Part shown: positions 59,479-59,550 of the stretch, in pieces
Layout: each line of letters starts with the position of its first letter
Numbering within the stretch: position 1 is the stretch's first letter
IMG/VR virus record: IMGVR_UViG_3300045988_130630
Length of the DNA: 64,000 nucleotides
Source: a virus
Strand: one strand, 5' to 3'
Notes under the pieces: generated by a model
The model's database searches: none
Seen by the model: only the letters and a program-made list of their open reading frames with translations
Told to the model about the DNA's origin: nothing
Position numbers and translations under genes: made by a program

Positions 59479-59550
59479 CAGAGGAAGTGGGAGTCGAACC
59501 CACACCCAGTGATTTAGAGTCACTTGACCTAGCCGTTAGCCGATTCCTCG
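59479..59550 (-). tRNA. amber suppressor tRNA, anticodon CUA (reads UAG); Gln-like identity features
   Basis: CGAGGAA-UC-GGCU-AACGGCUA-GGUC-A-AGUGA-CUCUAAA-UCACU-GGGU-GUGGG-UUCGACU-CCCAC-UUCCUCU-G. U33, A37, U54-U55-C56 and A58 are canonical. 1-72 is a C-U mismatch, with G2-C71, G10 and a G73 discriminator. CCA is not encoded. Confidence 0.7.

Follow-up and report, generated by a model that had tools for sequence, protein, structure and literature searches.

A phage-encoded amber suppressor tRNA found as three dissimilar alleles at one locus, and the likely reading of TAG as glutamine in tail, lysis and homing-endonuclease genes

Phages in which the amber codon TAG is reassigned to glutamine (code 15), which carry suppressor tRNAs and in which the recoding is concentrated in late genes, have been established bioinformatically (10.1101/2021.08.26.457843), and for the crAss-like phages code 15 has been proven by mass spectrometry (PMC9523058). 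In phages using code 15 or code 4, the structural, lysis and intron-endonuclease genes are recoded and the replication genes keep the standard code (10.1101/2021.08.26.457843). Here we describe a 64,000-nucleotide stretch of viral DNA, IMG/VR virus record IMGVR_UViG_3300045988_130630 (the whole stretch is called the window below), from an uncultivated phage of about 195 kb. Its minus strand encodes, at 59479..59550, a tRNA with anticodon CUA. We regard this as a further, well-supported example of the known code-15 recoding and not as a new phenomenon. We consider it highly likely that this tRNA of the phage's own reads UAG as glutamine in the tail, lysis and homing-endonuclease genes and in some accessory genes.

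An earlier interpretation made from the letters of the window alone, called here the sequence-only reading, had proposed a cloverleaf tRNA with anticodon CUA at these coordinates, without giving a strand. The ARAGORN run supported a tRNA with this anticodon and placed it (anticodon cta) at 59478..59550 on the minus strand, and Rfam agreed, with an RF00005 match to 59479..59550 on the same strand of 49.8 bits, where the gathering score is 29. The minus-strand letters of this 72-nt tRNA are CGAGGAATCGGCTAACGGCTAGGTCAAGTGACTCTAAATCACTGGGTGTGGGTTCGACTCCCACTTCCTCTG. Both the ARAGORN drawing and the thermodynamic minimum (minimum free energy, MFE) fold gave a standard class I cloverleaf, in which the four features emphasized by the sequence-only reading, namely G73, G2-C71, a disrupted 1-72 pair and G10, could all be seen. 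The acceptor arm is 7 bp long with an unpaired first position (C1xU72), G2-C71 and A3-U70; the D stem contains G10-C25, and the D loop of 8 nt contains G18G19; the anticodon stem has 5 bp and the anticodon loop reads CUCUAAA, i.e., C34, U35 and A36 followed by A37 and A38; the variable loop has 4 nt and the T loop reads TTCGA; the discriminator base is G73, and CCA is not encoded.

Nearly all genes of the window lie on the minus strand, and the GC content is 33%. Reading TAG as sense increased the minus-strand coverage by stop-to-stop open reading frames (ORFs) from 0.70 to 0.83, and 20 instead of 12 ORFs on this strand then reached 300 aa or more. With TGA as sense the gain in coverage was small (0.70 to 0.73), and with TAA as sense the rise was equal on the noncoding strand, which marks it as an effect of AT-richness; reassignment of these two codons was thus rejected. 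The 63 non-nested ORFs of at least 80 aa obtained with TAG read as sense terminate in TAA (54) or TGA (9), and in no case in TAG. These ORFs contain 72 in-frame TAG codons, distributed over 26 of the 63, and the number 72 is an upper bound, since several TAGs close to the beginning of an ORF probably precede the true start codon or fall outside genes (codon 8 of GyrA, codons 5 and 7 of 11748..12230, and codons 5 and 9 of 38322..38807 are doubtful for this reason). Codon 39 of 28554..28946, which is TAA in four relatives, is also doubtful, and a few TAGs near ORF ends (codon 242 of 24337..25080 and codon 102 of 54264..54602) are ambiguous. Pfam domains of the endolysin, the radical SAM/SPASM protein, the GIY-YIG genes and the NAGPA gene run unbroken across TAG codons rather than ending at them, and TAG positions are kept in at least 16 independently assembled relatives; because of this continuity and conservation, pseudogenes and assembly errors can be excluded, and in-frame TAG is decoded as sense. 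Domain continuity, coverage gain and conserved positions together bear out what the sequence-only reading had stated, that genes of the window are continuous only through in-frame TAG and that TAA and TGA serve as stops.

To determine which residue is inserted, relatives of 60-100% protein identity, with contigs of up to 201 kb, were collected from IMG/VR around three anchor genes, together with one Logan contig; every gene of the window was aligned to them codon by codon, and the unique events in which TAG stood against another codon were counted. Glutamine codons accounted for 45 of the 101 unique events (CAA 37, CAG 8), followed by codons for Lys (18), Thr (9) and Glu (7). The codons one substitution away from TAG were rare among the partners, with TAA, TAT, TAC and TGG each seen once or twice and TTG and TCG never, and because TAG to CAA takes two substitutions, mutational proximity cannot explain the observed partners. 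Under likelihood models built from the replacement spectrum of each amino acid in the same alignments, the log-likelihood (lnL) was -203.8 for Gln, -279.7 for Lys, -317.4 for Glu and -401 for Ser. Gln codons made up 44.6% of the partners of TAG; for genuine Gln codons this share was 36.4%, and for codons of Lys, Glu or His it did not exceed 5%. By its exchange behaviour, TAG thus appears to be a synonymous Gln codon in a CAA-preferring genome.

The second line of evidence came from distant homologues. Here only matches below 60% identity in pairwise BLASTP alignments were used, as the database translations of closer matches already put Q at TAG by fiat (one of them, P0001, has Q at 8/8 sites); a global MAFFT alignment of the endolysin homologues misaligned the N-terminal domain, whose order relative to the other domain differs among homologues, and was replaced by the pairwise alignments. 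Q was found in 111 of 113 homologues at the column of endolysin TAG146 and in 53 of 111 at that of TAG53, and in the radical SAM maturase in 63 of 106 homologues at TAG7 and 71 of 116 at TAG286. Pooled over 11 TAG columns, the scores were -30.8 for Q, -36.4 for K, -37.1 for E and -60.2 for S. The two independent lines agree, and on these alignments the residue encoded at TAG is glutamine, as the sequence-only reading had thought likely and had expected homologue alignments to show.

The TAG codons are not evenly distributed over the genes of the window. Among the Gln codons of 12 nucleic-acid enzymes (DNA ligase, GyrA, RNase H, GyrB, PhoH, three metallophosphoesterases, an AAA_33 kinase, an RNA ligase, RlaP and an N6 methylase), TAG accounts for 0 of 109, in comparison to 42 of 157 in the tail and lysis genes (Fisher p=2.6e-11) and 15 of 36 in four homing-endonuclease-like genes (p=5.9e-11), a gene class in which TAG had already been reported by the sequence-only reading. 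TAG is confined to non-replication genes in the window, and this restriction represents the published late-gene bias and no exception to it. The sequence-only reading had described the recoding as genome-wide and extending to early and middle genes; neither statement was supported, as no TAG occurs in any gene of the window recognisable as coding for a replication, repair or nucleic-acid enzyme. The only candidates for early or middle genes with TAG are a macro-domain gene (1 codon) and the radical SAM maturase (3) with its Cys-rich neighbour (2); the TAG of the macro-domain gene is coding, as confirmed by CAA and CAG exchanges in relatives.

The region 440..7546, on the minus strand, is a standard-code part of the genome: Pfam identifies DNA ligase, GyrA, RNase H and GyrB in this replication block, all TAG-free, and the sole interruption is a TAG-bearing GIY-YIG homing endonuclease gene at 4617..5303 (minus strand, 3 TAG), whose GIY-YIG domain (residues 3-91) spans TAG41. 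A second GIY-YIG homing endonuclease, at 62525..63307 on the minus strand, carries 5 TAG, or 56% of the Gln-type codons it contains. Two paralogous Zn-ribbon/DUF2726-like endonuclease-like genes lie within 24337..27450 on the minus strand with TAG-free genes between them; 24337..25080 has 2 TAG and 26659..27450 has 5, and exchange with CAA was seen at three positions. The endolysin had been given as 8828..9615 with 2 TAG, and in fact extends over 8828..10129 on the minus strand (433 aa) with 8; its Phage_lysozyme2 (residues 3-165) and Amidase_2 (188-324) domains span seven of the eight TAGs, and TAG trades with CAA in the relatives. The block of tail-fibre and structural genes at 42149..58334 on the minus strand, recognized by Mtd_N domains and PHROG tail-fibre matches, comprises 14 ORFs with 40 TAG in total, and the number per gene ranges from 0 to 10 instead of the 1-4 proposed earlier. 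A gene at 61537..62394 on the minus strand, which encodes a NAGPA phosphodiester glycosidase and SPOR cell-wall protein, has 2 TAG, and its NAGPA domain (residues 51-204) spans TAG158.

The radical SAM/SPASM peptide maturase at 12288..13580 on the minus strand belongs by Pfam to the family with CXXX-repeat targets, and it has 3 TAG, the number given by the sequence-only reading, and domains that are continuous across them. It adjoins a 234-aa Cys-rich protein with CxxxC-type Cys/Gly/Ser repeats (13912..14616, minus strand, 2 TAG), which judging from its translation is the likely substrate of the maturase; TAG202 of this protein is CAA in five relatives. The two genes (12288..14616, minus strand) look like a phage-borne maturase and substrate pair of the type found for ribosomally synthesised and post-translationally modified peptides (RiPPs).

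The relatives also allowed the suppressor locus itself to be compared. Wherever the tRNA region of a relative was recovered, it contains a tRNA(CUA) between tRNA-Val and tRNA-Tyr, and this tRNA occurs as three alleles. Allele A (72 nt) is present in the window and in one contig, L062, whose copy is 96% identical to that of the window and has a compensatory change of G28-C42 to A-U; allele B (90 nt, with a variable region of about 21 nt, a class-I 4-bp D stem and an extra hairpin of 3 bp) is present in seven contigs, and allele C (73-75 nt) in four. The identity to the tRNA of the window is 47% for allele B and 60% for allele C, while the 400-nt flanks on each side are 91-97% identical to those of the window in most genomes with allele B or C (L022 and the more divergent L026 are exceptions). 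The converse is seen in L062, in which the tRNA is 96% identical and the flanks are 56-65% identical. In the alignment, the break in homology falls exactly at the borders of the tRNA: the homology among relatives picks up immediately past the discriminator base, in the conserved downstream flank CGGTGCTAAAAACAAAACC (59459..59478, minus strand; alignment and exact-match scan), and on the other side lies the conserved upstream flank TTGAATTAAGGAGTT (59551..59565, minus strand), in which a small ORF lying upstream has its stop codon. The closest relatives of the window, contigs 118370 (IMGVR_UViG_3300045988_118370, 197 kb) and 126669, both carry allele B, and they have in common with the window a rare 87-nt insert in tRNA-Pro.

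Six distinct sequences represent the three alleles. In these, 19 of 19 stem pairs are standard and 11 pairs are changed on both sides, and position 1x72 is a standard pair in none of the six (CxU, UxU or UxC). G2-C71, G10-C25, G73 and the loop CUCUAAA are invariant in all six, and pair 3-70 is A-U in alleles A and C and C-G in allele B. Because TAG exchanges mainly with CAA and CAG in the genomes of each allele, and 60 TAG sites of the window are common to the allele-B genomes, all three alleles very probably insert glutamine.

We know of no earlier description of three suppressor alleles that are interchangeable at a single locus. The polymorphism is solid as an observation and may reflect either selection or neutral mosaicism. 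It is conceivable, if rather doubtful, that the suppressor locus is a hot spot for the precise exchange of cassettes in which the open 1x72 position, G2-C71, G10-C25, G73 and CUCUAAA are kept. As tRNA-Val and tRNA-Tyr are also replaced, in a few genomes (L028, L059 and L026), by divergent alleles, so that the whole tRNA array is mosaic, cassette exchange is a property of the tRNA array that is strongest at the suppressor. Exact-pattern scans of IMG/VR for alleles A, B and C gave matches in this lineage only, and no donor was found. If selection is at work, the natural variation would define a minimal portable set of GlnRS identity elements for amber suppressors, and the device of the code change would itself be under diversifying pressure, which might come from escape from host tRNA-targeting nucleases or from adaptation to differing host GlnRS enzymes.

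In the mechanism we propose, the tRNA(CUA) would pair with UAG and deliver glutamine, allowing the tail-fibre, lysis and homing-endonuclease genes, as well as some accessory genes, to be read through, and termination would occur at TAA or TGA only. Since CCA is not encoded, the suppressor would be matured by host enzymes. Direct charging by the host GlnRS is suggested because the unpaired 1x72, G2-C71, G10-C25, G73, U35 and A37 are determinants of the E. coli enzyme, for which U35, the pairs 1-72 and 3-70, the pair 10-25 and the discriminator have been described as identity elements (PMC9976931); the presence of U35, G73, the open 1-72 position, G2-C71 and G10 agrees with the sequence-only reading, which had named major GlnRS identity elements in this tRNA. 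Apart from 3-70 and U38, the putative determinants match the positions that do not vary among the three alleles. Glutamine is also accepted by amber derivatives of tRNAfMet and tRNATrp, and by tRNASer(CUA) after changes at 1-72 and 3-70 (PMC9976931). As for timing, the standard-code replication genes may be translated first and the TAG-bearing late genes once the suppressor accumulates and outcompetes RF1, and the same two-phase model has been proposed for other code-15 phages.

Several observations weigh against this mechanism. G3-C70, an element of E. coli GlnRS recognition, is absent (A3-U70 or C3-G70 in the alleles), and U38, another such element, is replaced by A38; A37 is present, and A36, which stands in the place of G36, is forced by the amber anticodon. 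The host assignment is weak, as it rests on the binning of relatives with Bacillota metagenome-assembled genomes (MAGs; Clostridium, Eubacteriales, Agathobacter, Acutalibacteraceae, Selenomonadaceae and 'Mollicutes'), and only about one third of Firmicutes have GlnRS; a GlnRS-bearing host is nevertheless plausible, since a survey of 28 Firmicutes found the enzyme in 10, C. difficile and C. perfringens among them (PMC3927822). The annotated ORFs of the 64-kb window include no RF1 inhibitor, release factor or synthetase. None of the suppressor alleles resembles the tRNA-Gln(UUG) genes carried by relatives L026 and L062, which leaves descent from these genes unsupported, and the codon-exchange events are phylogenetically non-independent.

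There is some room for a different route of charging, in which glutamine is inserted and the tRNA is charged indirectly, by a non-discriminating GluRS followed by GatCAB, or by a phage synthetase encoded outside the 64-kb window. The absence of GlnRS from 18 of 28 Firmicutes (PMC3927822), taken with the Bacillota binning, would favour such a route, and a phage enzyme is conceivable since some recoded phages encode their own, e.g., the TrpRS of Jade phages (10.1101/2021.08.26.457843), and since the window is about one third of a genome of about 195 kb; within the window, no synthetase is present. Bacterial amidotransferases and GluRS2, however, depend on U1-A72, and the main determinant for the B. 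subtilis GluRS is a modified U34 (PMC9976931), whereas all alleles have an unpaired 1x72 position and C34. Because U1-A72 and the modified U34 are both absent, the indirect route is disfavoured, and we regard these alternatives to direct charging by the host GlnRS as unlikely.

It is far less probable that TAG is read as another residue, i.e., Lys or Glu, or Ser in relatives with allele B. Lys and Glu are the residues most often involved in mischarging or replacement, and as exchange partners (18 and 7) they follow after Gln; K, R, D, E or G prevail at several homologue columns, and mislysylation of amber suppressors is possible (PMC1483225); allele B, with its long extra arm (variable region of about 21 nt), G73 and G2-C71, could recall a serine tRNA. 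However, Gln is ahead of Lys by 76 lnL units in the exchanges and by 5.6 units in the homologue columns, Ser scores -401 and -60, and one site is Q in nearly all homologues. The allele-B genomes have their own TAGs mostly against CAA or CAG, in addition to the 60 positions in common with the window, and allele B retains the class-I D stem with an extra hairpin of just 3 bp.

Slightly more remote still is the explanation that the tRNA is not the decoder or that there is no recoding, the in-frame TAGs being due to pseudogenes, assembly errors or reading by near-cognate host tRNAs, with the tRNA merely perturbing the host. Suppressor tRNAs without recoding are indeed known from some phages (PMC12386605). 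Against this, the TAG positions are conserved over the independent assemblies with domains intact across them, TAG exchanges with Gln codons as a synonymous codon would, none of the essential lysis and tail genes would be intact, and the tRNA(CUA) occupies the same site in every relative with the region recovered. The last candidate, a pyrrolysine tRNA, can be dismissed almost entirely, given that the label 'tRNA-Pyl' is printed by ARAGORN for any CUA anticodon, that G18G19, the TTCGA T-loop, the 8-nt D loop and the 5-bp anticodon stem are canonical, that pylS and pylBCD are absent among the annotated ORFs of the window, and that the TAG columns fit Gln and not Lys. The fold of tRNAPyl is atypical, with a short D loop lacking G18G19, a 6-bp anticodon stem and a 3-nt variable loop. 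Reading of UAG as glutamine by the phage's own tRNA, probably charged by the host GlnRS, thus remains the preferred explanation.

The suppressor is one of nine tRNAs detected by ARAGORN in the window, all on the minus strand. Its neighbours are tRNA-Tyr(GUA) at 58814..58903 and tRNA-Val(UAC) at 60266..60341, both on the minus strand, which are conserved at 98-100% and 96-100%, respectively, in most close relatives; tRNA-Tyr thereby contrasts with the polymorphic suppressor. A 182-aa ORF at 58695..59243 on the minus strand traverses tRNA-Tyr, and its C-terminal third, together with its TAG, is probably noncoding. An ORF of about 39 aa (59575..59694, minus strand), MICRTKEHYENRIAKLYSHGEVMNQRLINKMKRKLRKLN, ends 10 nt upstream of the suppressor tRNA, inside the conserved upstream flank. 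The scan for promoters and terminators around the suppressor gave nothing interpretable, and BLAST of the 72-nt tRNA against GenBank phages found only weak matches to the T arm or anticodon arm of mixed isotypes, which are uninformative on identity. Reading the 1x72 mismatch as that of an initiator tRNA was rejected, as it is not C1xA72 and the anticodon stem is without a run of three G-C pairs. The tRNA-Pro(UGG) at 60752..60914 on the minus strand is split inside its anticodon by the 87-nt insert (listed at 60797..60880), which Rfam itself scores as tRNA-like (35 bits) and whose anticodon region is aberrant; in most relatives the tRNA-Pro is intact, with 76 nt, and the insert was seen only in contigs 118370 and 126669. 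The tRNA repertoire varies among near-identical relatives (L020-L028, L059 and L062-L065), with tRNAs for Gly, Leu, Met, Pro, Gln, Arg and His present or absent. Two candidates from these searches were discarded: a 'tRNA-SeC(tca)' of L059, considered as an opal suppressor, is a false positive inside a homologue of the tail gene 56259..58334, and L061 was no more than a 23-nt match by chance.

Other genes of the window are described here for completeness. An RNA-repair-like set, all TAG-free, lies within 17000..28541 on the minus strand and may counter tRNA-cleaving nucleases; it comprises metallophosphoesterases at 17000..17560, 18830..19549 and 25882..26475, an AAA_33 kinase at 17545..18069, an RNA ligase at 22959..24335 and an RlaP nucleotidyltransferase at 27735..28541, each on the minus strand. 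At 30743..33241 on the minus strand there is an 832-aa homologue of the eukaryotic major vault protein (MVP), with MVP_shoulder (1.4e-21) and Vault_3 domains by Pfam, which is collinear with PDB MVP chains over residues 317-758 (E about 3e-17), is kept in relatives down to 60% identity and is TAG-free; the antisense ORF of 738 aa that overlaps it (31061..33277, plus strand) probably results from base composition. The MVP-like gene is immediately preceded on its strand by a gene for a DUF2828/DUF7788 protein (33721..35247, minus strand) with no sequence match in PDB, and one may speculate that this pair and the nearby RNA-repair genes form a module of ribonucleoprotein type. A RAGATH-33 RNA motif was found at 39422..39550 on the minus strand, intergenic in the tRNA-rich region, with 126.8 bits and a gathering score of 120.4. 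Five minus-strand genes (15314..16699, 22959..24335, 30743..33241, 33721..35247 and 40997..41368) use 66 CAG against 3 CAA among their Gln codons, while the rest of the window prefers CAA (286 CAA against 58 CAG); these five lie in stretches of higher GC and two end in TGA, which suggests a foreign origin or a separate codon-usage class.

In practical terms, translation table 15 is required to annotate this lineage, as the standard code splits about one third of the genes, among them the endolysin, the tail fibres, the RiPP-type maturase and its substrate, and the four endonucleases. With this case, the code-15 phages gain a well-documented example of about 195 kb that is associated with Bacillota, and the late-gene bias on which the model of the code switch as a lysis timer is based is seen once more. 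The three alleles offer a testable natural definition of the tRNA features needed for an amber suppressor to be charged with glutamine by a host synthetase, and their comparison could be useful for the evolution of recoding as well as for suppressor tRNA design.

In comparison to the code-15 gut phages (crAss-like, Lak, Jade, Sapphire, Agate, Garnet and Amethyst), the phage described here is likewise of low GC with a host that likely uses the standard code, has a tRNA(CUA), TAG aligned with Gln, and TAA and TGA as stops, and has its recoding concentrated in structural, lysis and homing-endonuclease genes. The share of recoded genes is at most 41%, within the published range of 26-71%; the genome of about 190-200 kb is similar to those of Jade and Sapphire, and the recoded modules are scattered, an arrangement also seen in Jade, Sapphire and Agate. 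Unlike some code-15 phages, the window has no code-change module (release factor or aminoacyl-tRNA synthetase) beside the tRNA. The link to crAss-like and Lak-type phages drawn by the sequence-only reading was apt as a likeness to code-15 gut phages; membership of the lineage in either group is unsupported, as a genome of about 195 kb and Bacillota binning fit neither, and no hallmark gene of these groups (terminase, major capsid protein, crAss-type RNA polymerase or DNA polymerase) was found in the 64-kb window. A close phage relative was not found in GenBank, where GyrB reached at most 43% identity and megablast of 40-64 kb against GenBank phages gave tRNA fragments only.

With respect to tRNAs, the likeness to tRNA-Pyl is limited to the CUA anticodon, the suppressor described here having a canonical cloverleaf, a window without pyrrolysine machinery and TAG columns that point to Gln. 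The amber derivative of E. coli tRNA-Gln, supE (glnV), has anticodon CUA and inserts glutamine. It has in common with the suppressor here G73, G2-C71, G10, U35, A37 and a weak or open 1-72 pair, which GlnRS needs, and differs in having U1-A72, G3-C70 and U38 where the latter has a true 1x72 mismatch, A3-U70 and A38; the suppressor here also has no detectable descent from any tRNA-Gln, including the tRNA-Gln(UUG) of related phages. A functional parallel is given by the laboratory amber suppressors tRNAfMet(CUA), su+7 tRNATrp and tRNASer(CUA), in which a non-Gln body with CUA, an opened first pair and a suitable discriminator is sufficient for GlnRS (PMC9976931). The three unrelated-looking bodies found at this locus match them in sharing only those features, and while the laboratory suppressors are E. 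coli mutants or cases of mischarging, the arrangement in this phage lineage would be a natural, selected state.

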